A stretch of 64,000 nt of DNA from the NCBI GenBank assembly GCA_963837955.1, contig CAWIPH010000002.1, positions 3,162,623-3,226,622 of the forward strand, read 5' to 3'. The notes under the pieces are model-generated. The model had not been told where the DNA came from, did no database searches, and saw only the letters and a list, made by a program, of their open reading frames with translations. This DNA comes from an uncultured Verrucomicrobiae bacterium (GTDB lineage: Bacteria > Verrucomicrobiota > Verrucomicrobiia > Chthoniobacterales > JAFAMB01). The position numbers were made by a program, and so were the translations under genes. Shown in pieces: positions 35,583-60,030 of this stretch. The first letter of the stretch is position 1. The number at the start of each line of letters is the position of its first letter.

Positions 35583-35612
35583 AGACTCCCCGATCGAGCA
35601 AGTCAAAGGCCC

Positions 35613-36398: not shown

Positions 36399-36434
36399 TT
36401 CGGACGCGTCTCCAACTCGGCCGGCCGCGGACAA

Positions 36435-42612: not shown

Positions 42613-42631
42613 GGATTGTTCGTGTCGAAAG

Positions 42632-43747
42632 TCAGCCTTGTAAGGCCCGGCCCGGGGTGAGCCGCGAACTACGCCATGCAGGGTAGAGACCGCTCATAAC
42701 GCCTACCACAACGGCGATCCCCACAGATTTAGCGAGGAGAATGAAGCTGGTGTCCGGCTCCAGGAGTCCGCGGATGGCAGGCGTCGCGCCGAGGAACTTT
42801 ACACCAATAGCACCGATGAGCACGCCTACCACGCCGCCGAGCAGACCGAGCAGGGCCGACTCCCACAGAACCATCCGAACGATCCGCCCTCGTTTCCATC
42901 CGAGTGCGAGCAAAACACAAATCTCCTGCGTGCGCTCAAATACGTTCATCAGCATCGTGTTCATTACGCCGAGTACACCGACGAGCACCGCCAGCAAAGA
43001 AGTGCCCCAGCTCATGGCCTGCACCATGCGATACGCCTCGCTATTGGTGATATTCTCGCTCGCCACCACGGCGCGGCCTTCCGGGACCAGGCGGTTGATC
43101 TGCTCACAGAGAAGGTCCACATCTTTGGCGCTGGTTGAGGGCGTGACGCTGATGTCGACAATATTGATCCTGCCCTCATTCCCAGAGATTTCTTGGAACA
43201 GGGGGAGAGAGAGAATGATCGAGCCGTTCTCCACCCACGCATTGCCGTCGACGATCCCAACCACGGTCAGCTCACGAGTCTCGATCTCAATCGGATCACC
43301 AACTTTTTTCTTAAGCACTTCCGCCGCTGTACGGCCCAAGACAACGGCTGGCTCTGCCGGGTCGCGCGGCATTCGCCCCGAGATTACCTTGAGATTTTTC
43401 CAAGCAAATCCGGCCCACTCCCGCGCGGACACCATCATCATCTCGGTGTTCTCAACGCTCATCAAGTCTACCAATATCGCGCACGTGTCAGCCACGTGAG
43501 GAAGGTGAGCGATCCGGTCGCGCACCGAGACGGGAAACGGCTTCGGGATCAGGGAGCTGCCCATATTGCTGATTACCACATCGGTGCCACGCGCTTTCAA
43601 TCCTGACTCCCAGCTCCGATTAAACCCGCGCGAGATACCGACCAATGCAACGACGGCGGCAATGCCGATTGAGATGCCTAAGAGTGTCAGCCCGGTTCGC
43701 ATCGGACGACGTGTCAGCCCACGCACCACCACTGTGAAAAAAGTCAT
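42632..43747 (-). CDS. ABC transporter permease, FtsX/MacB type
   Basis: The start was moved to MTFFTVVVRGLTRRPMRTGLTLLGISIGIAAVVAL, just after the ATPase stop. A large periplasmic loop lies between TM1 and TM2. The C-terminal FtsX bundle reads RTQEICVLLALGWKRGRIVRMVLWESALLGLLGG. Confidence 0.85.
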   Translation of the reverse strand: MTFFTVVVRGLTRRPMRTGLTLLGISIGIAAVVALVGISRGFNRSWESGLKARGTDVVISNMGSSLIPKPFPVSVRDRIAHLPHVADTCAILVDLMSVENTEMMMVSAREWAGFAWKNLKVISGRMPRDPAEPAVVLGRTAAEVLKKKVGDPIEIETRELTVVGIVDGNAWVENGSIILSLPLFQEISGNEGRINIVDISVTPSTSAKDVDLLCEQINRLVPEGRAVVASENITNSEAYRMVQAMSWGTSLLAVLVGVLGVMNTMLMNVFERTQEICVLLALGWKRGRIVRMVLWESALLGLLGGVVGVLIGAIGVKFLGATPAIRGLLEPDTSFILLAKSVGIAVVVGVMSGLYPAWRSSRLTPGRALQG

Positions 43748-43748
43748 A

Positions 43749-44495
43749 TTATGCTCCTGCGACGGCCGTTTCGCGATCTGATACAACGCGCCCGTCCTTC
43801 ATGTGGATTATTCGTGATGCTCGCTGGGCGATGCTCGGGTCGTGCGTCACCAACACCAGCGTCATGTTCTCCTCCAGGTGGACCCGAACGATCAGCTCGA
43901 GGATGAGGCGTGCGTTCTCGCTGTCGAGGTTGCCCGTCGGTTCATCCGCAAGCAGGACGGAAGGAGTATTAGCCAGGCTGCGGGCGATGGCAACGCGCTG
44001 CCTTTCTCCGCCGGACAGCTTAGCTGGGAAGTGGTTGAGGCGGTGCTCCAGTCCGACCGACTTTAGCAAGGTCATGGCTCGATATTTGCGCTCCGAAACG
44101 GGAAGGTCGCTTTCAAACATCGGAATTTGCACGTTCTCGAGCGCAGTAAAGGTCGGCAGCAGGTGAAACGCCTGGAAAATGAAGCCGATCTGATGAGCGC
44201 GATAACTCGATGGATCAGGCAGATCAGGAATCGAGTTTCCACGGTAGAGCAAGGTTCCAGCAGTAGGCCGGTCAAGCGCACCCAGCATTTGAAGCAGTGT
44301 GGTTTTTCCACAGCCGCTTGGACCGGTAATGGCCACGAAATCTCCCTGGACCACGCTAAAAGTTACACCGCGCAAGGCCTGGACTTGGCCATCCTCGAAT
44401 TTTTTCTCGAGCCCTATCGCCTCGAACACGTATCTCGAAGGTGCGGTGGTCGGGTTCTCCAATGTACTTTGACTAATAGATGAATGCTGACTCAC
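43749..44495 (-). CDS. ABC transporter ATP-binding protein (LolD/MacB-type)
   Basis: 248-aa ORF with Walker A GPSGCGKTTLL, Q-loop, signature LSGGERQRVAIARSL, Walker B LLADEPTGNLD and an H-loop (VTHD). Confidence 0.95.
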   Translation of the reverse strand: MSQHSSISQSTLENPTTAPSRYVFEAIGLEKKFEDGQVQALRGVTFSVVQGDFVAITGPSGCGKTTLLQMLGALDRPTAGTLLYRGNSIPDLPDPSSYRAHQIGFIFQAFHLLPTFTALENVQIPMFESDLPVSERKYRAMTLLKSVGLEHRLNHFPAKLSGGERQRVAIARSLANTPSVLLADEPTGNLDSENARLILELIVRVHLEENMTLVLVTHDPSIAQRASRIIHMKDGRVVSDRETAVAGA

Positions 44496-44550
44496 AAGAT
44501 CGGTCGTCGCGTGTTCGCCCCAGCTGCGCCTATGGGCTGCACACTCCTGT

Positions 44551-45555
44551 TCAAGGTGGCGTGGCTGTGCGCCACTGGGCTCCCGCTCGCGGGTCGCGAA
44601 GACTATTAAGAAGGTCCATCAACGCATGCCGGTAGCTCGGAAATGGAGATACTTCGCCGGGGTTCTTCGGCGCGAGTTCCGAAGCGTGTTGGGGCAATTC
44701 CGCGTGCGGCACGCCGGAATGCCGGTGATGAACGCCGTGATAGGGCTCATGGAGCAGAGTGAAGGCGACGAACTGGCCGAGCGGCCCCTCTGACACAATG
44801 CTCCGGGTAGAGCTGTTTACAGTCGAGCCGGTGAGTCCGACGTGCTCGATGTATTTGCGCCAGCTCTGCATGTTCGCGGCCAGAAACGCAGGCGCCAGGT
44901 ACATCCACAGAAAATATTTCCATGCGCCCCACCACGTCACCGCCGCCAGGATACAAAACCACACACCAGCCATCAGGGCGAACTCCGCCCAAATTCGCCG
45001 GCGCAGCTTTTTGTTCCGAATCGGCGTACCGGTGCGGAGAAAAGTGCGTACGAACAAAAACGGCGTGTAAAACAAGCCGAGATTTAGTTCCAGAATTGCG
45101 GCCAGGACCCTGCCCCAGCGCGGCGTTCCAGGAATGACGAAGGGCCAGAGTTCTATGTCCCGTTCAGTGGCCAGATATGCGTGATGCAATTGGTGCGCCG
45201 CGCGGTAGAGGCTCAAGCTCATCAAGCTAAAGACCCCAATAATAATGCCATCAATTTCATTCAAGCGCCGGCTCTTTCGAAGCAGTCCATGAGATGCCTC
45301 ATGGAAGCCGATCAACATCCCGTGCATAAGGTGGCTGGCCGTTAACACTAGCGGCAAAGCTAACCAGATAGATCCAAAGTACAGGGCGGTACCCAGTGCA
45401 GCTTGATTGAGAAAGAAAACGGCGGCGAGGACTGGGAAAGCCGCACGGCTCACCCAATGGGGTTGTTGCGGTTCGAGCAACGTTTCTGTTGATGGCGTAG
45501 TATTCATCGCGTTCAGGTCATAAGGGCGGCGATCCGACTTTCTGGAGAGCGACAA
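44551..45555 (-). CDS. Membrane fatty-acid desaturase family protein (di-iron, three His boxes)
   Basis: 334-aa ORF with His boxes HEASHG, HQLHHAY and HGVHHRH separated by hydrophobic helices. The annotated start overlaps the upstream C-domain gene. An alternative ATG at 45507 removes the overlap. Confidence 0.85.
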   Translation of the reverse strand: MSLSRKSDRRPYDLNAMNTTPSTETLLEPQQPHWVSRAAFPVLAAVFFLNQAALGTALYFGSIWLALPLVLTASHLMHGMLIGFHEASHGLLRKSRRLNEIDGIIIGVFSLMSLSLYRAAHQLHHAYLATERDIELWPFVIPGTPRWGRVLAAILELNLGLFYTPFLFVRTFLRTGTPIRNKKLRRRIWAEFALMAGVWFCILAAVTWWGAWKYFLWMYLAPAFLAANMQSWRKYIEHVGLTGSTVNSSTRSIVSEGPLGQFVAFTLLHEPYHGVHHRHSGVPHAELPQHASELAPKNPGEVSPFPSYRHALMDLLNSLRDPRAGAQWRTATPP

Positions 45556-46862
45556 GTGCCTGCGAGCACAGCCTCGAACAGGTACGCTAAGTTTTTAATT
45601 TCCGCTAGAGGGAACAGTTTCGGTCGGAAAAGCCATACTACCTCCAATCCCTCCTCCACTACCGTGATTTCGCATCCCAGGTAAAAACGCGCTGTACCGG
45701 TCGAGCGCATCCGGAGCCGGGCGGACAGTCCGTGCACCGTTATGTCTGGCACAGGATGGTTTTGCAAGGCGAACCGCACTTCAAAAATGGGATTGTGCCC
45801 CGGTGCAGGCAAGTCTCCAAGCGCCGGTACGAGTTCAGCGAATGGCATGGCATTCGCGAAGGAATCCACGGTTGTTTGATGCACCGCCCTTAGGCTCGCG
45901 GAGAACGGACGGTCTACATCGACCTGGCCTCGGAGTGGCACAATACCGGCGCAGTACCCCATCGTTTCCCGCACGGCCTGCTTGGCTCGATTCGCTACGG
46001 GCGTACCAACCAGGATGTCCTTCTCGCCTGTCCATTGGGCGAGCGTGACCTGAAAGGCAGCCAGCAGTGCGTTGAAGAGCGTTGTGCCAGTGACGCGGGC
46101 CAGCTCTCGCGCGGCATCGGCCAGATCGACCGGCAGATGCGAAACCCATCGATCGGGCGCACTCGACCCGGTCTCGGGTCCTTCCAGGGAGTTCCAGAGC
46201 CGCCGGCTTCCCGCGAGATTGGATTTCCAGAAAGCGGCCCGTCGCTCCAATTCCGCCGGCTGCCAGAACGCGCGTTCGGCTGCTCCCCAAGCCGGGTAGG
46301 TGAGCGACAATGGCGGAAGCCCCTCGCGCAGACTCATGAGCCCTTGCACATAGGCAACACACAGATCCTGGACGAACACACCCAGCGTCCAGCCATCAGC
46401 AATGGCGTGATGAATCGCGAACACTAGCACGTGGTCATCGGCAGCTCGCCGGAGCCCCTCGGCCCGGTAAAGAGGTCCCTGCACCAGATCGAATGGCTCG
46501 CTGAAAATCTCTCTCGCCAGATCTTCGACCGCCTCTTCGTGCCTCTGCGTAGACGAAAGCTCGCGGAAACGGAAATTGGCTTCTCCGCCCTGGCGAATCA
46601 TCTGTAGCGGCCGATCTTTGCCGGGCAAGAAGGAGAGGCGCATAACCTCCTGCCGTTCTACCACTCGCTGAATCGCAGCCTCGCAGGCGTGTCGCGTAAT
46701 GACGCCCCGCATCTGGATAAGGCAGCAGATGTGGTTCGCTATATCCGTCACGGCTACCGGCGAGACCTCCCACAATTCCCGCTGGGGAAATGTCAGCGGT
46801 TGGAGGCTTGCTTTTCCGCTGGCCAGCCACTCTTTAAGAAGGGCGCGCTTGTCTCCTGACAT
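45513..46862 (-). CDS. Free-standing NRPS-type condensation (C) domain protein / PapA-like acyltransferase
   Basis: 449-aa ORF with the catalytic motif HHxxxDG in VLVFAIHHAIADGWTLGVF and the N-terminal block PLTFPQRELW. There are no A or T domains. It starts 18 nt after the PKS stop. Confidence 0.85.
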   Translation of the reverse strand: MSGDKRALLKEWLASGKASLQPLTFPQRELWEVSPVAVTDIANHICCLIQMRGVITRHACEAAIQRVVERQEVMRLSFLPGKDRPLQMIRQGGEANFRFRELSSTQRHEEAVEDLAREIFSEPFDLVQGPLYRAEGLRRAADDHVLVFAIHHAIADGWTLGVFVQDLCVAYVQGLMSLREGLPPLSLTYPAWGAAERAFWQPAELERRAAFWKSNLAGSRRLWNSLEGPETGSSAPDRWVSHLPVDLADAARELARVTGTTLFNALLAAFQVTLAQWTGEKDILVGTPVANRAKQAVRETMGYCAGIVPLRGQVDVDRPFSASLRAVHQTTVDSFANAMPFAELVPALGDLPAPGHNPIFEVRFALQNHPVPDITVHGLSARLRMRSTGTARFYLGCEITVVEEGLEVVWLFRPKLFPLAEIKNLAYLFEAVLAGTCRSPESRIAALMT

Positions 46863-46879
46863 GTGGATCTCGGGTTCGC

Positions 46880-49800
46880 TTAGCGCACGGCGTCCTGGGG
46901 ATCAGAAGCGTCATCCGAGGCCGAATCAAAGCGGAGCAATCCCTCAATTTCCTCGTCCGAAAGCGCTTCCAAATTCACGTCGTCGGTGGACGCCTCGTCC
47001 GGCGCCGCCGCGCGTGCTGTGGTTGGCGCGAGTCCCCCATCAACCCTCTTTGCGCCCATGTGCTCAGCGATCAATGAAACGATTTGAGCGATCGTGCGCG
47101 CCCGGATCAGGCTGGCTGATGGCAGCGCCACGCCGATTGCGCTTTCGATCGAGTTTTCGATCTCAACGCCCATCAGCGAATCGAGCCCCAACTCCGTGAG
47201 CGGCTGGTCGTCGCGTAGAGTTTCCGGCTTCACGCGCAGCACCGAGCCAACGACATCCCGCACCGCTTGCCTGATGATGCCCTCCAGCTCTTCCGGCTTG
47301 GCCGATTCGACCTTGAGGCGCCAGTCGCTCGTTGCACCGCTCGTCTCCTGGCTTTCAACGGATGCAAAAATGCGCTCGAGCAAAGGATTCTCCTGCATGC
47401 CGCGGAAAAACTGGCGCCATTTCGCCCAATCGACGCGGATCGCCATCACTTGCGTGACGCCTGCGGCCAGGGACGATTCCAAAAGTCCCATCACTTCCCT
47501 CGGTGAGAGTTCCGTCGTGCCCTGTCGCGCGAGGAATTCGGCGACGCGTTCATTGCGAGCCACATAACCCTCACCGCCGAGAACACCCCAATTGACCGTG
47601 AGCGCTGGGAGGCCCAATGCGCGGCGGTGATGGGCCAGCGAGTCGAGGAAAGCGTTGGCAGCGCCGTAACTGCCCTGTGCCGGATTGCCAAAGATGCTCG
47701 AGACGGATGAGAACATCACGAAGCAGTCAAGTTCGAGATCTCGGGTGCCTTCGTGCAGCAACCACGCTCCATGCGCCTTGGGTGCCATCACGCTGCGGAC
47801 CCGCTCGCGGGTAAGCGAAACGAGTGGCGCATCGTCGATTACCATCGCCAGATGGAACAAGCCCCGCAGCGGTTGATCGCCTGAACGAATCTCCCCGATG
47901 AGTCGCGCGACGTCCTGTGATGAGCCGATATCCGCCCGCACCACTCTCACATCGACGCCGACCTTGCGAAGGCTTTGCACAAACGCCTCTGCTTCGGGCG
48001 TGGCTCCGCCGGTCCGGCTGGTAAGCACGAGATGGCGGGCGCCGCTGTCGACCAGCCATTGCGCCAGCACTTTCCCGAAACCGCCAAACGCCCCAGTGAT
48101 TAAGTAACACCCGTCCGGATTGATCGCGAAAGCCGGCCGAAGCGGTTCTCCACGCTGGGGAAGGAACGCTTCGGGAAACGCTACGACGACTTTACCGATG
48201 TGTTTGCCCTGCGCCATCAACCGAAACGCTGCGTCAACCCGGTAGGCGGGAAACGAACGGAACGGGAGCGGACCGAGCGCGCCCTGTTCGATGAGTCCGG
48301 AGATTTCCTCCAGTATTTTTCGGGTCAATGCCTCATCACCCGAGAAGACCGCATCCATCGCGATGACGTGAAATGACGCATTGCGGCGGAGGGGCCAGAG
48401 CGGGATCCGGGCATTCTGATAGATATCGCGTTTGCCGATCTCGATGAAGCGGCCGAATTCTGCGAGACATGAAAGTCCCATCGGAATTGCTTCGGCGGCG
48501 AGCGCATTCAAGACCACGTCCACGCCCCGCCTGCTGGTCAATTCCATTACGGCGTCTACAAAATCAGCACGTCGCGAATCAATCACGTGTTTTACTCCCA
48601 GCGTTTCCAGCAGCGCGCGCTTGGCCGGACTGCCGGCGGTGGCGATGACCTCCGCCCCGAGATAGTGCGCGATCTGGATGGCAGCCATACCAACGCCACC
48701 CGCACCAGCGTGGACGAGAACTCGCTCACCTTTCCGCACCCGCGCGATATTCAACAGCGCATGCCACGCGGTCATGAAAACTACGGGTAACGTAGCCGCC
48801 TGCTCAAACGATAGTCCACCAGGAATGCGGCGTACGTCACCGCCTCTCGCCAGTGTAAGCGAAGCGAGCCCGAACGCGGCGAGGCCAAAGACTCGGTCTC
48901 CGGGTATGACATGTTCCACTCCGGAGCCGACCGCTTTCACCACGCCAGCCACCTCGTCGCCGAAGATCCGAGCATCCGGCGCTTCGCCGGGATACAGTGC
49001 GAGCGCCTTGAGCACGTCGCGGAAATTCATTCCCGCCGCTTTCACTTCGATCAGCACTTCGCCGGCACCGCAGGCCGGCAGCGCGAAAGGCACGAAGCGC
49101 AGGGCGTCGAGATGCCCGCGCTCGCGGGACACGAGTCGCAGCGGCACCGCCGGATCGAGTAATTCCTCGCGCGAAGACCGACCACGAACGAGGCGCTGAA
49201 CGTATCGGGCTTCGCCCCGGAACGCAATTTCACGCTCGGCATCCTCGCGCAGCAGCTCGCTCCAAAGCAAGGACTGGTCAGATGCCGAAGGTTCGGGTGG
49301 CAGATCGATCTCGCGGCCCAAGAAATTTGGGTACTCGTTCCGGATGACGCGCATCAACCCGAGGAGGGGTGATTGCGCTACGCTGGTCGTATTCATCCCA
49401 CGTCCCGCCGGCTGAGCTCCGCGCGTCACCAAATCGATGCGCCGTTTTGCAGGTTCTTTGATATCTTCCGTCGCCTGGATCAGATGGAGCAACGCATCGG
49501 TGCCCATTAGCGCAGCATCTCCGGCGGCGTCTGGCCGCGGCTCGTCCAAACTCCACAGGTAAACAAAACGTTCCGGTGGAGCGTCGTCAGCGTATTCGTG
49601 AAGGAGCTGCTTCCAGTCGTCGAGCACCTCTGCCCGCAAAGTGAATGTGTCCGTCCCCTCCAGTGCAAAATGGTCGCCCCGTCGGGCGACACGGCAGCGG
49701 ACGCCCAAGGCGTGCAATTGCGAAGCCAACCCGTCACCAAGACCGGAGGCGTCCGCGAAAATGAGCCATGACTTCTCCGCCGGCACCTCCAAGGGTGTCT

Positions 49801-52800
49801 CCGCTGAAGGAGAGACAGCGGCGGCAGAATCGTGCCAGGACTTGCGCGCGAGGAGACCGATCTGGCCTTCGCCTTCCGGAGCGACCAGTCCTGGCAGTGA
49901 AGCGGTCTCTTCGAAGCCCGTCTCCCGTAAGACGACCTCCCATTGAGAGCGCTCCAACAAAGGATGGAGCGGACGCAAATCGCGATCGGTAAACCGCCAC
50001 CAGCCGGTCGTGAGACCGAACACTACTTCCGTCCATAACTGTGGACTAGCGACGTCCATGAATACTAGGTTCCCGCCTGGCGCCAACAGTTCGTGAATAT
50101 GTCTCAGCGTTGAACGCAAATCGCTCACCGCATGTAGCACATTGGTGCCGATGATGAAATCGAATGCCCCAGCTTCGAAGCCTTGCTCGACGCCTGGTTT
50201 TTCGAGATCAAGGATTTTGTATTCCACTTCAGGAAAGCCGGCCAGCTTCTGCATGGCGCCGCTAAAAAATGCCGCAGAGACATCACTGAAGGTATAGGAA
50301 TGTAAATCGCGTTCGATCAGCGGCAGCACGTGCGAGGCTAGTCCACCGGTGCCAGCCCCAACCTCCAGGATGCGCAGTCCGCGGCCCTCTGGCAGATGGC
50401 GGGCTGCTTCCTGCACCGCTGCAGCGATCGCCGCGAGCCAGTGGCTTGTGTAGAGGCCCTCGCCATAGAACTGGTCCAGTAACTCCGCTGAGGTCCCGCC
50501 GAACAGCACCTGGACAGCATCCTTCTCACCACGCAGGATAGGACCGAGTTCGGCGCAGTTCGCGGCGCAGAGGAGGCCCTCGGACAAATGTCCGGAATGA
50601 GTGGAGATGAATGACCGCAGGCTTTTCTGGGCGGAGTTTGCCGCGCTCGTAAAGGAAGGCGTTAGCCGGTAACTGTCGTCTTCTCTTATGAGCCAGCCCC
50701 GTTTCACGAGGCTCGCGGTTAAACGCTCGAACACAGGTCGCATCGGTTCTGCCACCCGCAGAGAATCGGCCGTGAAGCCTTCGCTTAGCGCCGCCAGAGC
50801 TATCATTTTCTGGAGACCACGGGCGAGTTGCGCCGCAGCGAGGTCATCTCCGGCTTCCATGGCATTCTGAAGCTCGGTCCGGCCTCGCGTGGCGATCACC
50901 TGCTCCATTGCATCCTGCGCCGCGCCGCGCATGCGGTCCAACGATACTGGTGATCGATATGCAGGGCGCGACGCTGCCGGCGTTCGCTCCCACAGGAGAT
51001 GATAAAGAACATTATGGTTTCCTCCCGTCGCGCCGGATCGGCGCGCCCCCGAGACGCTGATCGCCCGGAAACCATCCACCAGCACACAAGGCCTTCCTGC
51101 CTCATCATACAATTCAATCTTGCCTTCGAGGTACTCGCTATTCCACTGCTGCACAGCGGCGCGAACGAGACTGGAGGCTCCCGGCGAGCGTAGAAACAGA
51201 ATCTTGGCAAAGCGCACCGGTAGTTTTAGTTGAGCCTTGCGACCCTCTACCGTCGCGGCTCCTGCCGAAAGGATTTGCATCGCTCCGTCGAACAGAACGG
51301 GATGGAGCGGATACTCACCCGCTCGATGAGCAATCGCGTCGGACAACGAAACCCGGCCCGCCGACTTGCCATCGCCAGCCGAGAGCTCGCGGATGGGTCG
51401 GAACTCATCGCCGTAGCGAAGTCCCATGTCACTCATGTGGCGATAGAAGCCCTCCACCTCTACCGGCGCGACGCCAGCCGCCGCTTTGCGTTCCCAGGGT
51501 GACGACGCAAAGCCCGATTCGGTGCGCTCGCCACGCATCGAGCCTACGACATGCAGTGACCAGGCAGCGCCTTGGTCGAACCTGCTCTGGATCAAGAAAG
51601 TGCGCTCATTCGGATTATAGGAAAACTCGACGTGAAGCCCCGAAACGGAATCCGGCAAAATGAGCGGCTTGCGAATCTCAAAGTCCTCGACGACAAAAGG
51701 CCGGCCCTCGAAGAGCTGCACGCCCGCTTCCAGTGCCATTTCGACAAAGGCCGCTGCTGGAAACACGACTAAATTCTCGACCCTGTGATCCTTCAGAAAG
51801 GCCATGTGCCGGGCATCAAGCCGCGCGATCCAGGTTGGCGTGGCCCAAGGCAGTCGGACATCGAGCAATCCGCGACCACCGGAACCCAGACGGCCCTCGC
51901 GCCAGTCGCTGGACTCATGCCACCAGCGGCTCTTGTCCCAGGCGTAAGTCGGGAGTGAGAGCAGCCGCCGGGATGGCGTCATCCTCGCGAAATCCAACGG
52001 GACGCAGGAGCGGTGCAGCTCCATCGCGGTCTCGAGCACCGATTCGTGCTCGCGTTCCCGGCGTGCGGAACACATCACCGGTGCTTTGCCGCCCCGCCCA
52101 GCGAGGCATTCCTGAATCGAATGAATCAACGCCGGGTGCGCGCTGATTTCCAACCAAACGTCCACCCCGAAGTCCGACACCGCGTTGACGGCAGACGCGA
52201 ATTGCACCGACTGGCGCACTCCACGTCCCCAGTGAGCCGCGTTGCACTCCTGTCCGGCGCACCGCAGGCCAGTCACCGTGCTGAAAAACGGCACCCCTTC
52301 TCCCTGCGGCTTGAGATCGTCCAACGCTTCTTCCAGGGCCTCGGAAGCAGGCTGCATCAACGGGTGATGAAACGGGTGGTCTACCCGCACGAGTCTTGCG
52401 AAAACCCCTTGGAGTTCCAGCTCGGCGGCTATCGCCTCAAGTGATAGCCGGGAACCTGCCAGCGTCAACGAGCGAGGTCCGTTGAACGCCGCGATCGTCA
52501 GCGTGCGGTCATGCCGGGCAATCAGCGCCTGCGCTCCGTCCTCGTCCAGACCGACCGCGAGCATCGTTCCTTCACCCCGCGCACAGTCATCCATGAATCG
52601 GGCGCGCAACACGATCACCCGCGCTGCTTCCTCCAAAGTGAACACTCCCGCGACGCACGCCGCTGCCACTTCTCCAACACTATGGCCAACGATTGCAGCC
52701 GGCTGAACGCCCCAGGATTTCCACAATTCCGTTAGCGCCACCTGCATCGCAAAAATGGCTGGCTGCGCGATTTCGGTTCGATGCATTTGTGAGGCCTCTT

Positions 52801-54583
52801 CCGAGCGGCCGAGTTCCTCCAGCAGCGAGAACCGCGCCCATGGCCGCATCGCGGCATCGCACCGCTCGATGCTTTGTCGGAATACGGGCTCGTATTGCAT
52901 GAGCTCAGCGCCCATACCCCACCACTGTGGGCCTTGGCCGCTCATGACAAAAGCGACTCGCGGCGCTTGCTCCGGGCTCGGCGCGAAGGCCATGCGCACC
53001 TTCGAGCCCTTCTCTCCCCCTACGTAGGCGTTAAGCTCCTCGACGACCTCTCCCATCGAATGGGCAATGAGGGTGAGCCGATATGGGTGATGATTGCGCT
53101 TGGCCCCAAGGGTGTAAGCCAGATCCGGCAGCACCGGCGAACTGCCATTCGCCTTGGACCGCTCATCTGACCAGGCGCTCAACCGCGATGCCGAGGAGCG
53201 CAGAGCTTCCTCGGATCGGGCGGAAAGAACCAATGGCCACGCGCGCTCTGAGTGGGTGCCTACATGCTCCGGCTGGGGGCGCGGCGGTGCCTCCGTGAGA
53301 AGGACGTGGGCATTCGCACCACCAAAACCAAACGAGTTAACGCCCGCTATGCGTACGTCGCCGCCGGTCTCCGGAAAGGGCTCCAGGGCGACGGGCACGC
53401 GGAGTTTCAGGGCAGCGAAGTCGATGTTTGGGTTGGGTATCTCAAAGTGTAAGCTGGGCGGAATGCGCCGGTGTTTCAGTACCAGCAGCGCTTTGACCAA
53501 ACCGGCGACGCCCGCTGCGGTCTCCAGGTGGCCGAGGTTCGTCTTTACTGACCCAATGAGGAGAGGTGCATCCGCCGGGCGGTCTTCGCAGAGAGCTGCC
53601 GCGAGGGCGTGGGCTTCGATCGGATCACCGACCGCCGTGCCAGTGCCATGGGCCTCGACAAATCCGATTTGAGACGGAGCAACGCCGGCGTCGATGCATG
53701 CGTCACGCACAAGCCGCGCTTGCGCCTCAGCGCTGGGAAGCGAGATCCCGTTGGTGTGGCCGTCTTGGTTAAGAGCCGTTCCAATGATTACCCCATGGAT
53801 CGGGTCGCCGTCCGCAAGCGCTTGAGAGAGCCGCTTGAGGAGCACCATGCCAGCTCCTTCGCCGCGGACGAAACCGTCGGCCGACGCGTCGAAGGCCTTA
53901 CACCGGCCCTCCGGGGACAGCATCGAGGCCCGAGAAAAGCCGATAAATCCGCCGGGCGTAATCATGACGGTGACGCCACCCGCCAGCGCCACATCGCCGC
54001 GGCCCGCCCTAATGTGTTCGCACGCCGCATGCACCGCCGTTAGCGCAGACGAACACGCAGTATCCATCGCAACGCTCGGCCCGCGTAGATTGAAGCAGTA
54101 GGAGACGCGGTTGGCGGCAATACTGTGTGCGCAGCCGGTGGGCGAGTGCGGACCGATGCCGGAATGCTCCCAAGGAGTGCCCTGAATCGCCTGATAATCA
54201 TTGTGAGAAATTCCGACGAAAACCCCGACGTCAGTCCCCCGTTCGAGATCGAGCACGAGGCCCGCATCCTCAATAGCCTCCCAAGCTGTCTCCAACAGCA
54301 ATCGGTGCTGCGGATCCACGTAGGGCGCCTCCCGTGGCGAGATCCCAAAAAACTGCGGGTCGAACTGATCAATCCCCTCCAAAAATCCGCCGCGCCGAGC
54401 GATCGACTTGCCCGGCAGGCCCAACTCCGCATCGAAAAATCGGTCGACATTCCAGCGGTCGGCCGGCACTTCACCGACCGCCTCGCGGCCCTCCACGAGG
54501 AGTTTCCAGAATGATCCTGTGTCATTTACTCCGCCGGGAAAACGGCAGCCGATTCCGATGACGGCGATACGATCCTTATGCAT
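46880..54583 (-). CDS. Single-module, fully reducing type I polyketide synthase: KS-AT-DH-cMT-(psiKR)-ER-KR-ACP, no thioesterase
   Basis: 2567-aa ORF. KS (nt ~53294-54583): DTACSS, HGTGT, GHLETAAG. AT (~52064-52966): GHSVGE, HPFH. DH (~51044-51916): HRVENLVVFP and LHPVLFDGAMQ. C-methyltransferase (~49904-50596): LRILEVGAGTGGL. ER (~48179-49141): LVHAGAGGVGMAAIQ. KR (~47564-48121): YLITGAFGGFGKVLA and SYGAANAFLD. ACP (~47069-47296): LGLDSLMGVE, with the Ser codon at 47177-47179. An acidic C-terminal tail follows. Confidence 0.95.
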   Translation of the reverse strand: MHKDRIAVIGIGCRFPGGVNDTGSFWKLLVEGREAVGEVPADRWNVDRFFDAELGLPGKSIARRGGFLEGIDQFDPQFFGISPREAPYVDPQHRLLLETAWEAIEDAGLVLDLERGTDVGVFVGISHNDYQAIQGTPWEHSGIGPHSPTGCAHSIAANRVSYCFNLRGPSVAMDTACSSALTAVHAACEHIRAGRGDVALAGGVTVMITPGGFIGFSRASMLSPEGRCKAFDASADGFVRGEGAGMVLLKRLSQALADGDPIHGVIIGTALNQDGHTNGISLPSAEAQARLVRDACIDAGVAPSQIGFVEAHGTGTAVGDPIEAHALAAALCEDRPADAPLLIGSVKTNLGHLETAAGVAGLVKALLVLKHRRIPPSLHFEIPNPNIDFAALKLRVPVALEPFPETGGDVRIAGVNSFGFGGANAHVLLTEAPPRPQPEHVGTHSERAWPLVLSARSEEALRSSASRLSAWSDERSKANGSSPVLPDLAYTLGAKRNHHPYRLTLIAHSMGEVVEELNAYVGGEKGSKVRMAFAPSPEQAPRVAFVMSGQGPQWWGMGAELMQYEPVFRQSIERCDAAMRPWARFSLLEELGRSEEASQMHRTEIAQPAIFAMQVALTELWKSWGVQPAAIVGHSVGEVAAACVAGVFTLEEAARVIVLRARFMDDCARGEGTMLAVGLDEDGAQALIARHDRTLTIAAFNGPRSLTLAGSRLSLEAIAAELELQGVFARLVRVDHPFHHPLMQPASEALEEALDDLKPQGEGVPFFSTVTGLRCAGQECNAAHWGRGVRQSVQFASAVNAVSDFGVDVWLEISAHPALIHSIQECLAGRGGKAPVMCSARREREHESVLETAMELHRSCVPLDFARMTPSRRLLSLPTYAWDKSRWWHESSDWREGRLGSGGRGLLDVRLPWATPTWIARLDARHMAFLKDHRVENLVVFPAAAFVEMALEAGVQLFEGRPFVVEDFEIRKPLILPDSVSGLHVEFSYNPNERTFLIQSRFDQGAAWSLHVVGSMRGERTESGFASSPWERKAAAGVAPVEVEGFYRHMSDMGLRYGDEFRPIRELSAGDGKSAGRVSLSDAIAHRAGEYPLHPVLFDGAMQILSAGAATVEGRKAQLKLPVRFAKILFLRSPGASSLVRAAVQQWNSEYLEGKIELYDEAGRPCVLVDGFRAISVSGARRSGATGGNHNVLYHLLWERTPAASRPAYRSPVSLDRMRGAAQDAMEQVIATRGRTELQNAMEAGDDLAAAQLARGLQKMIALAALSEGFTADSLRVAEPMRPVFERLTASLVKRGWLIREDDSYRLTPSFTSAANSAQKSLRSFISTHSGHLSEGLLCAANCAELGPILRGEKDAVQVLFGGTSAELLDQFYGEGLYTSHWLAAIAAAVQEAARHLPEGRGLRILEVGAGTGGLASHVLPLIERDLHSYTFSDVSAAFFSGAMQKLAGFPEVEYKILDLEKPGVEQGFEAGAFDFIIGTNVLHAVSDLRSTLRHIHELLAPGGNLVFMDVASPQLWTEVVFGLTTGWWRFTDRDLRPLHPLLERSQWEVVLRETGFEETASLPGLVAPEGEGQIGLLARKSWHDSAAAVSPSAETPLEVPAEKSWLIFADASGLGDGLASQLHALGVRCRVARRGDHFALEGTDTFTLRAEVLDDWKQLLHEYADDAPPERFVYLWSLDEPRPDAAGDAALMGTDALLHLIQATEDIKEPAKRRIDLVTRGAQPAGRGMNTTSVAQSPLLGLMRVIRNEYPNFLGREIDLPPEPSASDQSLLWSELLREDAEREIAFRGEARYVQRLVRGRSSREELLDPAVPLRLVSRERGHLDALRFVPFALPACGAGEVLIEVKAAGMNFRDVLKALALYPGEAPDARIFGDEVAGVVKAVGSGVEHVIPGDRVFGLAAFGLASLTLARGGDVRRIPGGLSFEQAATLPVVFMTAWHALLNIARVRKGERVLVHAGAGGVGMAAIQIAHYLGAEVIATAGSPAKRALLETLGVKHVIDSRRADFVDAVMELTSRRGVDVVLNALAAEAIPMGLSCLAEFGRFIEIGKRDIYQNARIPLWPLRRNASFHVIAMDAVFSGDEALTRKILEEISGLIEQGALGPLPFRSFPAYRVDAAFRLMAQGKHIGKVVVAFPEAFLPQRGEPLRPAFAINPDGCYLITGAFGGFGKVLAQWLVDSGARHLVLTSRTGGATPEAEAFVQSLRKVGVDVRVVRADIGSSQDVARLIGEIRSGDQPLRGLFHLAMVIDDAPLVSLTRERVRSVMAPKAHGAWLLHEGTRDLELDCFVMFSSVSSIFGNPAQGSYGAANAFLDSLAHHRRALGLPALTVNWGVLGGEGYVARNERVAEFLARQGTTELSPREVMGLLESSLAAGVTQVMAIRVDWAKWRQFFRGMQENPLLERIFASVESQETSGATSDWRLKVESAKPEELEGIIRQAVRDVVGSVLRVKPETLRDDQPLTELGLDSLMGVEIENSIESAIGVALPSASLIRARTIAQIVSLIAEHMGAKRVDGGLAPTTARAAAPDEASTDDVNLEALSDEEIEGLLRFDSASDDASDPQDAVR

Positions 54584-54865
54584 AGAAGTGAGTCACCTGA
54601 TGTGACCGGAGCCTTAAGGGAAAATTCCGATCGTGACAAGTCAATGCTGTGCTGGGCTCTATAAAGAGGGTCAAACACCGGGCGGGCGAAGGGCGGCGGC
54701 ACTAAGCACGACGAGGGGCGTCCGAGTGAAATCGATGGCTATAAGCTTCATCCTTTTTCTTCTTTTCTTAGTCCCTTTTTCCCCAGTCCTTATTCGATTA
54801 AAGCGAAAGTGGTCGAAAAAACGGTTGTTTGGTGGGCATGCTCTGCACTAAGGCTGATAAATAAT

Positions 54866-56860
54866 ATGTGCGGCATCGCAGGTATCGTGGATCTGGCCGG
54901 ATACCGAACCGTAGCGGACGGCATTATCCAAAGGATGACGCAGGCGGTAGTTCACCGCGGCCCTGACGAGGAGGGTTACTTCCAGCGTCCTGGCTTGGTC
55001 CTGGGGTCGCGGCGGCTCAGTATTGTCGGCTTAGCGGACGGCCAGCAGCCGGTCACCAATGAAGACCGGAGTGTGTCTGTGGTGTTTAACGGTGAGTTCT
55101 TCGACTACCCTGAGAAACGCGCGGAGCTGGAAGCGCGCGGGCATCGCCTGGTCACACATTGCGACACCGAAATCATCCCACACCTTTGGGAGGAGAGTCA
55201 GGAAGGAGTGTTCGAACGCTTGCGTGGCCAGTTCGCCCTGGCATTGTGGGATGAGCGCCGGCGTCGTTTGGTACTTGGACGCGACCGTTTCGGCATCTGT
55301 CCGCTTTATTGGACGCGCCAGGGAGAGTGGCTCCTGTTCGCGTCAGAAATCAAGGCCCTGCTGGCTTCCGGTCTAGTGCCGGCGCGACCCGACCTTCGCG
55401 GTATTGACCACATTTTTACGTTCGCCGCCCTGCCTGGGCCGATAACCTGTTTCGAAGGCGTGCAGCTCCTGCCTCCTGGGCATTACCTGCGGATAGTCCC
55501 GGGTAACAATCGTGGCGCCGCACCCGCCATCAGCGAGCACGCCTATTGGGAGATGGATTTCCCGGACCGCGGCGACGAAGACCCAGGACGAGACCCGCGC
55601 GCTCTGGTGGATCGCTTCGAGCAGATAATGTTGCAGGCCGTGGAGGAGCGACTCCGGGCAGATGTGCCGGTGGGAGCCTATTTGTCGGGCGGAGTCGATT
55701 CAAGCATGATCACTGCCCTCGCCTGTCATCTCAAGGGTCCAGCGATTAACACCTACACGATCCGCGTTGACGCTCCTAAGCTTGACGAACTCAGTGCGGC
55801 CAACCTCGTGGCTCGGCATATCGGCACGAAGCAGCCGATCGTCCAGGAGTTTCGCGCTAGCGACACTCTCAACACGTATCCCCGGCTGATCCAAGCCGCA
55901 GAGGCACCGGTAGTCGATACCTCCTGTGCGGCTTTGCTGTTGTTAGCGCAACGTGTTCATACCTGTGGCCAGAAAGTGGTCCTCACGGGTGAAGGGGCTG
56001 ATGAGTGGCTAGCCGGTTATCCTTGGTACAAAGCGGCCAAAGCCATCGGTGTCCTGGACCTACTGCCCGGATTGCCGCTGAGCGACAGGGCGCGCCGCGC
56101 CTATCTTCGGCTGCACCACGTACCACAATATCCGGCGCAGTTTCGGCGTACCCTCGAGGAATCCGTCGGCGGTCCCAACGCCTGGATTGATACTTACGGG
56201 GTGCTCGGAATCTCCAAGCTTCGATTTTACGCTGCGCCAATGCGGGAAGTGCTAGAGAAAACCAATCCCTGGGCTGATCTTAGAATGCCGCTGGATCGTG
56301 CCAACCGCTGGCACCCGTTGAACCGAGGCATCTGGGTCGCAGCGCGCGTTACTCTGGCCGGACACTTGCTTCAGGCCAAAGGCGATCGAGTGGCGATGCA
56401 CTCCTCTGTGGAGGTGCGATATCCCTTCCTCGATGAAGATGTCTTCGATTTTTTGGCCGGGCTGCATCCACGTTGGAAACTCCGTGGGTTTCGGGACAAA
56501 CACCTGCTCCGCCTCCTAGCCGAACGCTGGGTGCCGCCGTCCGTATACCGGCGCCGCAAGGTTATCTTCCGCGCTCCCCTGGATAGTTTCCATATCGAAC
56601 CGGAGCCGGCGTTCGTGGCTCAGCTCTTAAGTGAAGAATCGCTGCAACGCACCGGATATTTTGACATTGCTGCGGTGCATCATTGGCGGCGGGCCTTCCG
56701 TCAGATGCCGATTGGTTCCCTGCCACGCCTCTCCGTGGAGTTGGGGTTGACGGCGGTGGTGGCGACTCAGCTTTGGCATCATCTGTTCATCGGGCCGGAA
56801 TTGGCAGAATTGCCAACCTGGACGGGCAACCGAACGGTGCTTGAGAATGTGTCATTCTAG
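54866..56860 (+). CDS. Asparagine synthetase B-like glutamine-dependent amidotransferase
   Basis: The start was moved to MCGIAGIV, where the class-II Ntn amidotransferase needs Cys2. The PP-loop YLSGGVDSSMI is in the synthetase domain. The protein is ~664 aa. It is divergent from the PKS gene. Confidence 0.9.
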   Translation: MCGIAGIVDLAGYRTVADGIIQRMTQAVVHRGPDEEGYFQRPGLVLGSRRLSIVGLADGQQPVTNEDRSVSVVFNGEFFDYPEKRAELEARGHRLVTHCDTEIIPHLWEESQEGVFERLRGQFALALWDERRRRLVLGRDRFGICPLYWTRQGEWLLFASEIKALLASGLVPARPDLRGIDHIFTFAALPGPITCFEGVQLLPPGHYLRIVPGNNRGAAPAISEHAYWEMDFPDRGDEDPGRDPRALVDRFEQIMLQAVEERLRADVPVGAYLSGGVDSSMITALACHLKGPAINTYTIRVDAPKLDELSAANLVARHIGTKQPIVQEFRASDTLNTYPRLIQAAEAPVVDTSCAALLLLAQRVHTCGQKVVLTGEGADEWLAGYPWYKAAKAIGVLDLLPGLPLSDRARRAYLRLHHVPQYPAQFRRTLEESVGGPNAWIDTYGVLGISKLRFYAAPMREVLEKTNPWADLRMPLDRANRWHPLNRGIWVAARVTLAGHLLQAKGDRVAMHSSVEVRYPFLDEDVFDFLAGLHPRWKLRGFRDKHLLRLLAERWVPPSVYRRRKVIFRAPLDSFHIEPEPAFVAQLLSEESLQRTGYFDIAAVHHWRRAFRQMPIGSLPRLSVELGLTAVVATQLWHHLFIGPELAELPTWTGNRTVLENVSF

Positions 56861-56995
56861 TGCGCCGATCGTGTGCGACGACAATCGGCGAGACCAAAGG
56901 AAGCATTTGCGGGCTTGCACCCGCTCTCTGACGAACGCTACAACGTGTCCCATCATGTGGGATGCGTAGAGCTTTCTTATGACCAATACAATCAA

Positions 56996-58357
56996 ATGAA
57001 AAAAAGTCGCGGTGTCACCGCTCGATCGATTCTCGTTGGGCTTTCCTTGATTACATGTTTCAGCGACTGCGCGATCCTACAGAGCCGATCGGCGAGGGAG
57101 ACTCGCGATCGCGCGTTCATTGTTTATTGGCCTCCTCCGAAGGAAAGCAAAGGGTTGCGCCTGGCAGTCAAAGATCTCATCGACATGAAGGGCGTGGTGA
57201 CCACGGCCGGCTCCGAATATGTTGCTAAGACCAGTCTAGCCGCTTCACGTGATGCGCAGTGCCTGGCGATAGCACGGCGGCGAAACGTGCAGATCGTAGG
57301 AAAAACGAATCTCAGTGAATTTGCAGTGGCCCCTTCCGGGATCAACGATTTCTTCGGAACTCCCAGGAGCCCCTTGAGCAAGAAGAGCAAGATTATCCCG
57401 GGAGGTTCATCCAGCGGTTCAGCGGTGGCGGTCGCAAGCGGACTGGCGGACGTTGCTTTTGGAACGGATACAGCCGGCTCCATCCGCGTACCCGCAGCTT
57501 GTTGCGGCATCGTCGGTCTGAAGACGACGTTTGGCCTTGTTTCTTTGCGGGGCGTGTTTCCAGTTGAGCCAAAGCATCTGGATACGGTCGGTCCGATGGC
57601 CAAAGACGTGGCTCATGTTGTCGAAGGGATGGACCTTTTGCAGGACGGGTTTGCGGCACGATACCGAGCAGCGGTGGCTGCTAAACCGTTGGCAAAAAAC
57701 ATCAGAATCGGGCGACTCTACCTGGGTGGCACCGACCCTAAGATCGACAAAGCGATTGATGACGCTCTAGCCCGGGCAGGCTTTCGAGTGGTCCCACTGG
57801 ACCAAGCCTTCAAGGCGAAGTGGGACCAGGCTAAGAGAGATGGGGACACGGTGGCGGCAGCCGGCGTTCGGATCAGCGATGGAAAATTCTTCGACAAATT
57901 AATAGGAGTAAGCGCCAGGACCAAGGCAATAATCGCCTTGGGTGAATTCGATTACAGGACGAGCTACCAGAAAGCTCTACGGAGGCAAGCGGCGTGGCAG
58001 CAGGCCCTTCGTCAAGTCTTTAAGAAGGTTGATTTCATTGCTCTACCGACTCTTCAGAAGCTGCCGCCAAGGATTCCGCCCATCGCCAAAACCGTCCTTT
58101 TGGAAGCGCAAATAGCCCTTTTTGAAGCAGAAATGTTGGGCGCGCAAAACACCGTTGCTGTGAATTTTGCTGGAAATCCTGCGCTGGCGATACCGATTCC
58201 GTTGGATGATAAGACTATTCCCTCAACTAGCGTGCAGCTGGTCGGGCCGCGTCTGAGCGAAGCCGAACTTCTCAATGCGGGCCGCCTGATCGAGGCCGAG
58301 CCGCAACCTGGTCGACACGTCATGACAACGAAATATGCGACATCCGTTTCTCGCTGA
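56996..58357 (+). CDS. Amidase-signature (AS) family amidase, lipoprotein, paralog 1
   Basis: The start was moved to MKKSRGVTARSILVGLSLITC, a lipobox-like sequence. Features are the catalytic Lys in LAVKDLIDMKG, the AS motif IPGGSSSGSAVAV, and the nucleophile region GTDTAGSIRVPAACCG. Confidence 0.85.
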   Translation: MKKSRGVTARSILVGLSLITCFSDCAILQSRSARETRDRAFIVYWPPPKESKGLRLAVKDLIDMKGVVTTAGSEYVAKTSLAASRDAQCLAIARRRNVQIVGKTNLSEFAVAPSGINDFFGTPRSPLSKKSKIIPGGSSSGSAVAVASGLADVAFGTDTAGSIRVPAACCGIVGLKTTFGLVSLRGVFPVEPKHLDTVGPMAKDVAHVVEGMDLLQDGFAARYRAAVAAKPLAKNIRIGRLYLGGTDPKIDKAIDDALARAGFRVVPLDQAFKAKWDQAKRDGDTVAAAGVRISDGKFFDKLIGVSARTKAIIALGEFDYRTSYQKALRRQAAWQQALRQVFKKVDFIALPTLQKLPPRIPPIAKTVLLEAQIALFEAEMLGAQNTVAVNFAGNPALAIPIPLDDKTIPSTSVQLVGPRLSEAELLNAGRLIEAEPQPGRHVMTTKYATSVSR

Positions 58358-58462
58358 GGATGTCTCTGTCGCACCACGCGCGGCACCGACCATGAGGAGC
58401 GTTACCACGTGTCCCTTTTCCGCCAGGAGCGAGGAGCCCTTCGTGATAATCATAAAAGTAAA

Positions 58463-59794: not shown

Positions 59795-59820
59795 GATGTC
59801 CTTCTCGGCAAACGCCGGTC

Positions 59821-59874
59821 GGTCCCCCGTTGAGCGAAGCGGAACTCCTCAATGCGGGCCGCCTGGTTGAGGCA
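59821..59874 (+). pseudogene. Remnant 3' fragment of a third amidase copy
   Basis: GGTCCCCCGTTGAGCGAAGCGGAACTCCTCAATGCGGGCCGCCTGGTTGAGGCA encodes GPPLSEAELLNAGRLVEA. This matches the C-terminal VGPRLSEAELLNAG(R/H)L(I/V)E of both intact amidases (nt ~58243-58296 and ~59692-59745). No upstream ORF is attached to it. Confidence 0.6.
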
Positions 59875-60030
59875 AAGCGCTCACAGCTTGATCGACGCGT
59901 TAGAGCCCCCGAAATCCGCGCTAACTAAAAACTCCGCATGCGGGCGCGGTTTCGAGTTGCCGATGCGAACTTCGCGGCTAGAATGACACTCACCAGCGGT
60001 ACATTTTGCACCATCGAGTTGCAAAAAGCG

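Follow-up and report, generated by a model that had tools for sequence, protein, structure and literature searches.

A conserved Verrucomicrobiota locus with a stand-alone, probably C-methylating polyketide synthase and a free-standing condensation domain as proposed release enzyme

We analyzed a 64,000-nucleotide stretch of the genome of an uncultured Verrucomicrobiae bacterium (contig CAWIPH010000002.1; the whole stretch is called the window here), which contains a gene locus centered on a type I polyketide synthase (PKS). On the minus strand, the listing of open reading frames (ORFs) and its translation show an ORF with an ATG start at 46880..54583 that encodes 2567 amino acids (aa). These are arranged as ketosynthase (KS), acyltransferase (AT), dehydratase (DH), C-methyltransferase (C-MT), pseudo-ketoreductase (psiKR), enoylreductase (ER), ketoreductase (KR) and acyl carrier protein (ACP), and the acidic tail that follows, including EALSDEEIEGLL, is present in the translation. 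The genes downstream encode a free-standing condensation (C) domain of the nonribosomal peptide synthetase (NRPS) type, a membrane desaturase, an ATP-binding cassette (ABC) ATPase, an FtsX permease and a LolA-like protein. A divergent AsnB-family gene lies on the other side of the PKS gene, followed by two amidase-signature genes and one for a tetratricopeptide repeat (TPR) protein (Table 1).

Table 1. Genes and PKS domains of the locus, with window coordinates. Loci: loci with the gene over loci long enough to show it, then identity to the window protein.
Feature	Position (nt)	Strand	Residues, motifs and notes	Basis	Loci; identity
Stand-alone type I PKS with acidic tail	46880..54583	-	2567 aa	Pfam; 120 homologs	78/80, directly upstream of C; 68-92%
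KS	53294..54574	-	aa 4-430 (Pfam aa 4-381); C177, H312, H352	Pfam, motif alignment	
AT	52046..52951	-	aa 545-846; GHSVGE (S635), HPFH (736-739), RTEIAQ	Pfam, alignment	
DH	51041..51844	-	aa 914-1181; H933 in HRVENLVVFP (933-942; N937 at the 'Gly' position); GLRYGDEF; D1099 in DGAMQ	Pfam; alignment for the further motifs	
C-MT with N-terminal lid	49886..50842	-	aa 1248-1566 (Pfam methyltransferase 1385-1558); LEVGAGTGG (1406-1414), lid Tyr in QFYGEG, H1484 (NVLH), D1510 at the dyad position	CurJ C-MT match	
Structural psiKR region (inferred)	49154..49786	-	~aa 1600-1810	Position between MT and ER, weak PF21394 match, 66% conservation	
ER	48182..49126	-	aa 1820-2134 (Pfam 1839-2134); NADPH motif VHAGAGGVG	Pfam	
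KR	47579..48112	-	aa 2158-2335; VIDD (2248-2251; LDD-like, B-type), S2292/Y2306/N2310	Pfam	
ACP	47069..47269	-	aa 2439-2505; phosphopantetheine site S2469 in LGLDSLM	Pfam	
C-terminal tail	46883..47068	-	Ala/Pro linker and acidic motif (aa 2536-2550, nt 46934-46978)	Alignment	
Free-standing NRPS-type C domain; proposed release enzyme	45513..46862	-	449 aa	PF00668, E 4e-59	
Membrane di-iron fatty-acid-desaturase/hydroxylase family	44551..45555	-	HEASH, HQLHH, HGVHH; likely start M17, nt 45507		76/77, directly downstream of C; 55-91%
ABC ATPase, LolD/MacB/DevA-like	43749..44495	-		Pfam, NCBIfam	53/60; 59-85%
MacB_PCD + FtsX permease, LolC/E- or MacB-type	42632..43786	-		Pfam, NCBIfam	51/60; 60-90%
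Secreted LolA-like (TP_0789-like) protein	41788..42612	-	Candidate periplasmic lipid carrier		49/60; 50-75%
Divergent AsnB-family glutamine amidotransferase	54809..56860	+	Likely start nt 54866 (MCGIAG, Cys nucleophile)		41/49, upstream of PKS; 73-93%
Two tandem amidase-signature proteins	56873..58357, 58409..59794	+	Export signals; second with lipobox LSGC		
Secreted TPR protein	59938..60810	+	Constant companion of the amidase		

The locus recurs across Verrucomicrobiota. A scan of one genome per species (GTDB representatives) with an alignment of the C protein returned at least 554 stretches confirmed by tblastn, a number that could be inflated by unrelated C domains matching the HHAIADGW pattern. 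Family membership is claimed for the best 80 of these, all of which are at least 62% identical over their full length. These 80 loci belong to Chthoniobacterales (including Chthoniobacter, Ca. Udaeobacter and Terrimicrobiaceae), to Verrucomicrobiales (including Prosthecobacter, Luteolibacter and Akkermansiaceae) and to Pedosphaera, and the named members among the PKS homologs are all Verrucomicrobiota. The family is present in at least 80 bacterial species genomes and probably in hundreds, and about 2,090 clusters at 90% identity represent the C family in metagenomes. The closest locus (L002) shares 92-93% identity with the window.

Gene content was compared by tblastn of the window proteins against these loci. 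The trio of ABC, FtsX and LolA-like genes is complete in 48 of 60 loci. Five loci with longer flanks carry amidase-signature and TPR genes just beyond AsnB. The arrangement is <-TPR <-amidase <-AsnB / PKS-> in the window, L083 and L084 and amidase-> TPR-> <-AsnB / PKS-> in L001 and L085, with TPR in the second position in L082 too. L001 comes from Verrucomicrobiota bacterium sgz303538 (GCA_054456655.1) and L082 from a Prosthecobacter sp. (GCA_034366625.1). Because the genes of this block are kept and the genes outside it differ in every locus, we delimit a nine-gene unit at window 41788-60810. A 310-aa ORF at 40591-41523 was rejected as a member because none of the 81 loci has it. Some loci vary in the export region: L063 has an OEP/HlyD/AcrB resistance-nodulation-division (RND) efflux system (15004-20283) where the trio normally sits, and in L017 (14321-19974), as in L035, L040 and L045, the ABC and FtsX genes are separated by inserted genes for a 1285-aa patatin-like phospholipase and an alpha/beta hydrolase. 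This phylum-wide nine-gene system, which had escaped the earlier note, is the noteworthy result, and the PKS motif oddities that had been stressed in an earlier note on this DNA are ordinary. No description of the locus or of a matching Verrucomicrobia lipid was found in a literature search that left most subscription journals outside its range.

The PKS gene encodes a real, intact, stand-alone, fully reducing and very probably C-methylating type I synthase. Pfam places KS, AT, DH, MT, ER, KR and ACP in the order that the earlier note had read, the psiKR region being assigned indirectly, and the motif strings quoted there (GHSVGE, HPFH, LEVGAGTGG, HRVENLVVFP, VIDD and the acidic tail) all occur in the translation. 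The domain matches have E-values from 5e-97 to 5e-12 (KS 5e-97, AT 3e-73, KR 4e-65), and chance is excluded for them as it is for the match of the C protein. There is no thioesterase (TE) in the PKS according to Pfam, and TE, adenylation (A), peptidyl carrier protein (PCP) and FAAL domains are all absent from window ORFs of 150 aa or longer. The earlier statement that a TE is missing therefore holds, and an overlooked TE or hydrolase was rejected. The window contains no further PKS or NRPS domain apart from the C protein, and the annotated relatives (L001, L082-L085) have no other PKS, NRPS, TE, A, PCP or FAAL domain. Neither the window nor about 80 related loci have a TE, a loading domain, an N-terminal docking region or another PKS or NRPS module. 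In 87 of 121 homologs the KS begins about five residues into the protein, which leaves no docking or loading region. Lacking both a docking N-terminus and neighboring modules, the protein does not resemble a member of a multi-module assembly line, and its unusual feature is that the module stands alone.

All seven domains retain conserved catalytic motifs in Pfam matches and in an alignment of the window PKS with 120 homologs (72-100% identical, 2384-2659 aa), to which the following counts out of 121 refer. The KS Cys-His-His triad and the motifs DTACSS, EAHGTGT and N[LVMI]GHLE are present in 121/121, as is [LI]GLDSLM of the ACP. The ER motif VHAGAGGVG is found in 102/121 and the remaining variants retain the GxGGxG core, and the IDD and Ser...Tyr...Asn residues of the KR are conserved. 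In the AT, GHSVGE occurs in 119/121 and HPFH in at least 113/121, with HAFH in three sequences and YPFH in two. ATs with GHSQG and YASH use methylmalonyl units, and those with GHS[VILFAM]G and HAFH use malonyl units, with the Phe blocking a methyl branch. The best solved AT matches overall are the methylmalonyl ATs of DEBS, yet the specificity positions differ in the same alignment (RTEIAQ/GHSVGE/HPFH here versus RVDVVQ/GHSQGE/YASH in DEBS). This comparison indicates a malonyl-type AT, as had been proposed, with HPFH as a minor variant of HAFH.

The DH retains H933, GxxYGxEF and DGA[LM]Q throughout the family, and its 'Gly' position is Asn or Ser in every member. The earlier note had singled out this position as an oddity, a view that does not stand. 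The best solved match, the DH of CurK, reads HQVFNKVLFP and thus has the HxxxNxxxxP variant in common with this PKS (CurF has Gly). CurK DH is a characterized active dehydratase. Since Asn or Ser is family-wide and CurK shares the Asn, the variant is a family trait rather than a sign of decay, and inactivity of the DH on account of a Gly-to-Asn change was rejected.

The C-MT (aa 1248-1566) aligns end to end, lid included, with the CurJ C-MT structure 5thy (E 9e-59) and also with the C-MTs of PksCT, DisA, LovB, AprA and PsoF. Catalysis by PKS C-MTs depends on a His-Glu dyad and a Tyr (PMC9821293). The catalytic His (NV[LVI]H) is present in 121/121 and motif I is conserved, and the commonest variants shown, which make up about 112 of 121, retain the lid Tyr (QFYGEG). 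A check for a degenerate C-MT or DH thus finds the catalytic motifs conserved in both, with Asp for Glu in the C-MT dyad. Mean identity of the MT (83%) is similar to that of KS (86%), ER (85%) and KR (82%), and both psiKR (66%) and the linkers fall well below it. The C-MT is of the CurJ type, is under the same purifying selection as KS, ER and KR and is very probably active. Because it looks functional and the AT looks malonyl-type, methyl branches derived from S-adenosylmethionine (SAM) are the best reading, and the same suggestion in the earlier note gains support.

G+C content is 0.60-0.64 over the PKS (window 46001-54000) and 0.52-0.56 over most of the window. As the PKS is vertically conserved across the phylum, this difference more likely reflects an Ala/Gly/Arg-rich composition than recent transfer.

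The C protein has a canonical C-domain fold in its AlphaFold2 model (pLDDT 79.8, pTM 0.81), which Foldseek aligns with TycC, Txo2, TomBC and SgcC5 at TM scores of 0.7-0.8. Its HHAIADG motif is intact, with H151, H152, D156 and G157 the same in all of 56 sequences. In sequence and fold it is closest to canonical NRPS C domains (TycC, Txo1/2, DhbF, TomBC and HtmB2-CT). Giant NRPSs with 4-9 C domains and 24-33% identity dominate an exhaustive search of representatives with the C protein, and its family is well separated from ordinary C domains. It resembles SgcC5 and VibH as a stand-alone C-fold protein of about 450 aa with an HHxxxDG motif and a carrier-bound acyl donor (TM score 0.76 to SgcC5). 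It differs in that the donor here would be the ACP of a PKS, and VibH is not detected as a match.

A direct interaction between the two proteins may connect synthesis with release. The first 20 residues of the C protein contain a conserved basic helix (MS.DKRA.LK.WL.SG, aa 4-14). The PKS tail consists of a variable Ala/Pro linker followed by V[DN]L[ED]ALSD[ED][ED]I[ED]xLLG, and its mean net charge is -10. In the loci compared, the distance from the PKS stop to the C start is mostly 0-30 nt. One Ca. Udaeobacter locus (L074 2357-11341) encodes a single 2994-aa KS-AT-DH-MT-ER-KR-ACP-C protein, and both the acidic motif of the tail and the basic helix of the C domain survive at its fusion junction. 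The conserved tail motif, the tight gene coupling and this natural fusion suggest that the tail docks the C protein, which would then release the chain. The C domain is the sole release candidate in the locus and the acidic tail is a candidate docking element, which lends support to the docking idea put forward in the earlier note.

The partner genes are consistent with tailoring and export of a lipid. The desaturase has predicted transmembrane segments, matches the NCBIfam models for DesA, GntB and CrtW weakly without falling into a curated subfamily, and has no sequence match in the PDB. A Lol-type set of domains (ATPase, MacB_PCD + FtsX, LolA fold) is present, and its NCBIfam scores are all below the equivalog cut-offs; these genes probably represent paralogous systems rather than the housekeeping Lol system. 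The best solved relative of the AsnB-like protein, ahead of Escherichia coli AsnB, is the hydroxyamidotransferase 7ylz (E 1e-52). Enzymes of the hydroxyamidotransferase type activate the carboxylate of free organic acids with ATP (PMC13418202), and this gives a tailoring role for the AsnB-like protein a precedent. TsnB9 of the trichostatin and benzohydroxamate pathways, the best solved match, shares the AsnB fold, carboxylate adenylation and formation of an amide-type bond; its pathway differs in having TsnB6/7-like amidooxygenase genes, which are not present here. The amidase-signature gene is duplicated in the window and occurs as a single copy in L001, L083, L084 and L085. FAAH, peptide amidase and ClbL, the transacylase of colibactin synthesis, belong to the amidase family as well. 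Export signals are found on the amidases, the TPR protein and the LolA-like protein.

The nearest solved relatives of the PKS are bacterial. Its best full-length match is mycocerosic acid synthase (MAS, 1042 bits). KS-AT is closest to DEBS and MAS, with the KS-AT of CurL also among the nearest, CurK and CurF are the nearest DH relatives, and the CurJ C-MT is the nearest MT relative. For every domain, bacterial enzymes outrank LovB, PsoA and animal fatty acid synthase (FAS). The domain order is generic for reducing type I systems and indicates no special affinity to eukaryotic enzymes. The earlier description of the PKS as similar to fungal highly reducing (HR) PKSs and FAS, and as uncommon in bacteria, is therefore overstated. 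Functional analogy to iterative HR-PKSs, FAS and MAS remains reasonable, but the best domain matches are bacterial and the family is distributed over bacterial species as described above.

CurJ, from the cyanobacterial cis-AT pathway to curacin A, likewise has its C-MT after the DH, with catalytic His and Tyr residues, and acts on ACP-bound beta-keto intermediates, which we count as a feature in common with this PKS. It differs as a module of an assembly line that acts once and has a His-Glu dyad; the PKS here is a lone module with a His-Asp dyad and a proposed release by a trans C domain.

MAS offers the closest parallel for the locus as a whole. PapA5 has the acyltransferase role in the phthiocerol dimycocerosate (PDIM) pathway. 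DrrABC and the lipoprotein LppX take part in the export of the methyl-branched acids that MAS makes (PMC7261415). Like the PKS described here, MAS is a lone, fully reducing module without a TE, and its product is off-loaded by a condensation-fold acyltransferase encoded nearby, as in the related cassettes Pks2/PapA1 and Pks5/PapA4. Export by an ABC transporter and a LolA-fold periplasmic lipoprotein (DrrABC and LppX, along with MmpL7) is also similar. However, MAS lacks an MT and relies on methylmalonyl-CoA for its methyl groups, in contrast to the malonyl-type AT and SAM-dependent C-MT found here, and the PDIM pathway uses an MmpL transporter rather than the LolD/MacB type seen in these diderm Verrucomicrobiota. 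Membership of the MAS family fits the lone, TE-less module, to which an MT has been added, but neither a methylmalonyl AT nor PapA off-loading is found. The locus would thus parallel the logic of MAS, PapA5, DrrABC and LppX by analogy and depart from it in three features: methyl source, acyltransferase type and transporter type.

LovB shares the order KS-AT-DH-cMT-psiKR-ER-KR-ACP(-C), SAM-derived methyl groups and the use of a single iterative module, and the Ca. Udaeobacter homolog is fused to a C domain in the same way. The sequence similarity of LovB to this PKS is below that of the bacterial enzymes, the ER motif is intact here, and the C domain forms a protein of its own in 79 of 80 loci and reads HHAIADG. 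A place among LovB-like HR-PKSs is consequently supported by domain order and contradicted by the C domain. Animal FAS has a similar overall order, a malonyl-type AT and full iterative reduction, but it carries an inactive pseudo-methyltransferase and a C-terminal TE. The family described here has a conserved SAM site with conserved MT motifs and no TE, and does not belong with animal FAS.

These observations are best explained by iterative synthesis of a methyl-branched acyl chain, release by the C domain, tailoring and export, a reading to which we assign a probability of roughly 55%. The single PKS module would be used repeatedly, as in MAS or the fungal HR-PKSs; the lone module without N-terminal docking or loading regions fits such use but is not proof of it. 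It could either extend a fatty-acyl primer or build the chain de novo from malonyl-CoA. Beta-keto intermediates would be methylated with SAM and then fully reduced to give a methyl-branched saturated acyl-S-ACP. The acidic motif of the tail may then recruit the free-standing C domain with its HHxxxDG motif, which would release the chain by joining it, as an amide or ester, to a nucleophile other than one bound to a PCP of the locus. The membrane di-iron desaturase/hydroxylase could modify the lipid, and the AsnB-like amidotransferase could amidate a carboxylate of the product or of the acceptor. The LolD/MacB-type ABC exporter and the secreted LolA-like protein would move the product out of the inner membrane, and the periplasmic amidase-signature lipoprotein and its TPR partner might process it. 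The RND system of L063 and the patatin-like phospholipase of L017 support this export theme. Iteration, the acceptor and the product are what we infer from the locus, and the product is most likely a conserved Verrucomicrobiota cell-envelope lipid or lipoamino acid.

Several observations weigh against this pathway, and some of them are compatible with other explanations. The full ABC/FtsX/LolA trio is missing from the vicinity in 12 of 60 loci, and the AsnB-like protein passes the generic NCBIfam threshold for asparagine synthase and could be a housekeeping enzyme. L074 is the sole fusion in 80 loci and lies on a contig of a metagenome-assembled genome, where it could be an assembly or sequencing artefact or the result of a lost stop codon. 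A single-sequence AlphaFold2 model of the ACP and tail joined to the C protein (pLDDT 37.6) is uninformative on docking. The C protein itself is a canonical NRPS elongation-type domain, and domains of this type normally take aminoacyl-S-PCP acceptors. Neither PapA5 nor VibH appears among its phmmer matches (E up to 1e-3) or its top 50 Foldseek matches, and membership of either group was rejected. The C domain might accordingly join the polyketide to an aminoacyl-S-PCP from an A-PCP protein encoded elsewhere, as would suit its best matches TycC, Txo1/2 and DhbF, all of which are elongation domains with PCP acceptors. Such a trans hybrid is improbable, given that A and PCP domains are missing both from the window and from the annotated relatives (L001, L082-L085), that the natural L074 fusion protein ends at the C domain, and that the free-standing SgcC5, which uses a free acceptor, shares the C fold. 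The C-MT also departs from its relatives: 26 residues after the catalytic His it has Asp (D1510) in 121/121, where CurJ, PksCT, DisA and 7dmb have Glu. This replacement appears conservative yet is a real difference, and it could alter C-MT activity. If the domain were a structural remnant like the pseudo-methyltransferase of animal FAS, then straight chains would be made. The Asp found in every family member is compatible with this idea, but motif I is conserved along with the catalytic His and the lid Tyr, and MT identity is at the level of the catalytic domains and well above that of psiKR, so that we regard a remnant as very unlikely.

Two other alternatives accept an active synthase and differ in how it is used. 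The PKS might act without iteration, extending a fatty-acyl primer supplied by the primary FAS a single time to yield a 2-methyl-branched chain that the C domain then moves. The absence of a loading domain from the single module is compatible with this mode, its processing domains are closest to the non-iterative assembly-line modules of CurJ, CurK, CurF and DEBS, and the sequence carries no sign of iteration. Known lone, fully reducing modules (MAS, fungal HR-PKSs and FAS) are nevertheless iterative (see also PMC12370991), and a 2567-aa enzyme would be a costly way of adding one C2 unit and a methyl group; we consider a single extension unlikely, although deserving of attention. The product could instead be a diffusible specialized metabolite (an antibiotic, surfactant or signal), with the ABC or RND systems serving for efflux or self-resistance. 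MacB-type and RND systems are typical efflux pumps, and standard tools would label the locus a T1PKS/NRPS-like biosynthetic gene cluster. This possibility is rather doubtful in view of the 68-92% identity of the PKS and the near-fixed gene order over several orders and at least 80 species, which is not a patchy distribution, and in view of the LolA-like carrier and periplasmic lipoprotein partners, which suggest envelope trafficking. Because of this conservation pattern, an envelope lipid with a structural role seems more likely to us than a secondary metabolite of the typical kind. Descent of the PKS from fungi or animals by horizontal transfer would agree with the domain order found in LovB and animal FAS and with the one homolog that has a C-terminal C domain like LovB. 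It is hardly credible, since LovB, PsoA and FAS score below bacterial enzymes in all domains, the order is common to all reducing type I modules, and the C domain has HHxxxDG rather than the HRxxxDG of the LovB-type CON domain (PMC13492342).

The envelope-lipid reading can be carried further, although only tentatively. It is possible, if somewhat doubtful, that the nine-gene locus makes a novel SAM-methyl-branched polyketide amide lipid that is delivered to the outer membrane as a core component of the Verrucomicrobiota envelope. With the same reserve, the locus might be viewed as a diderm equivalent to the PDIM and sulfolipid systems of mycobacteria that is built from different parts, perhaps with a malonyl AT and C-MT, an NRPS C domain in place of PapA and a Lol-like ABC/LolA system in place of MmpL. 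Equally tentative additions to this picture are a cytoplasmic amidation by AsnB and a periplasmic deamidation or transacylation by the amidase and TPR protein.

The Verrucomicrobiota, with Chthoniobacterales and Ca. Udaeobacter as examples, rank among the most abundant bacteria in soil and are mostly uncultured. A 7.7-kb PKS gene at 68-92% identity that keeps fixed partners across orders is unlike ordinary secondary-metabolite clusters, and its conservation points to a lipid that is probably physiologically important and so far undescribed. If the proposed pathway is true, then the locus would define a new class of bacterial envelope lipid and could provide a chemotaxonomic or environmental biomarker for Verrucomicrobiota. 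It would also offer a bacterial model for an iterative, C-methylating, highly reducing PKS with release by a trans C domain, and an example of a Lol-like system that traffics a non-protein lipid. For PKS enzymology, the family-wide His-Asp dyad of the C-MT and the HPFH motif of the AT are natural variants of interest.

The window has further features of note. A promoter and terminator scan gave no more matches than shuffled sequence, and the sole Rfam match is a tRNA-Tyr. At 20507-21492 (-), two adjoining proteins have the AHSA1/SRPBCC fold, which binds small hydrophobic ligands; synteny does not link them to the PKS locus. A Trp-halogenase-like flavoprotein gene adjoins a DDE transposase gene (DUF772 + DDE_Tnp_1) at 16607-19640 (+), and this transposase is the only mobile-element gene seen in the window. 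Genes for DoxX, pentapeptide-repeat, MbnB/TglH/ChrH-family (DUF692; E 2e-104) and DUF2063 proteins lie together at 35079-38669 (+). This set resembles the tailoring genes of bufferin- or methanobactin-like ribosomally synthesized and post-translationally modified peptides, although the region immediately before the MbnB-like gene shows no obvious ORF for a Cys-rich precursor. An 852-aa protein encoded at 3688-6246 (-) has a central TIR domain and is otherwise unannotated, and a role in defense or signaling is possible. An alpha-2-macroglobulin gene (1878 aa) is followed by one for a PBP1C-type transglycosylase/transpeptidase at 24797-32898 (+), a known periplasmic defense pair.

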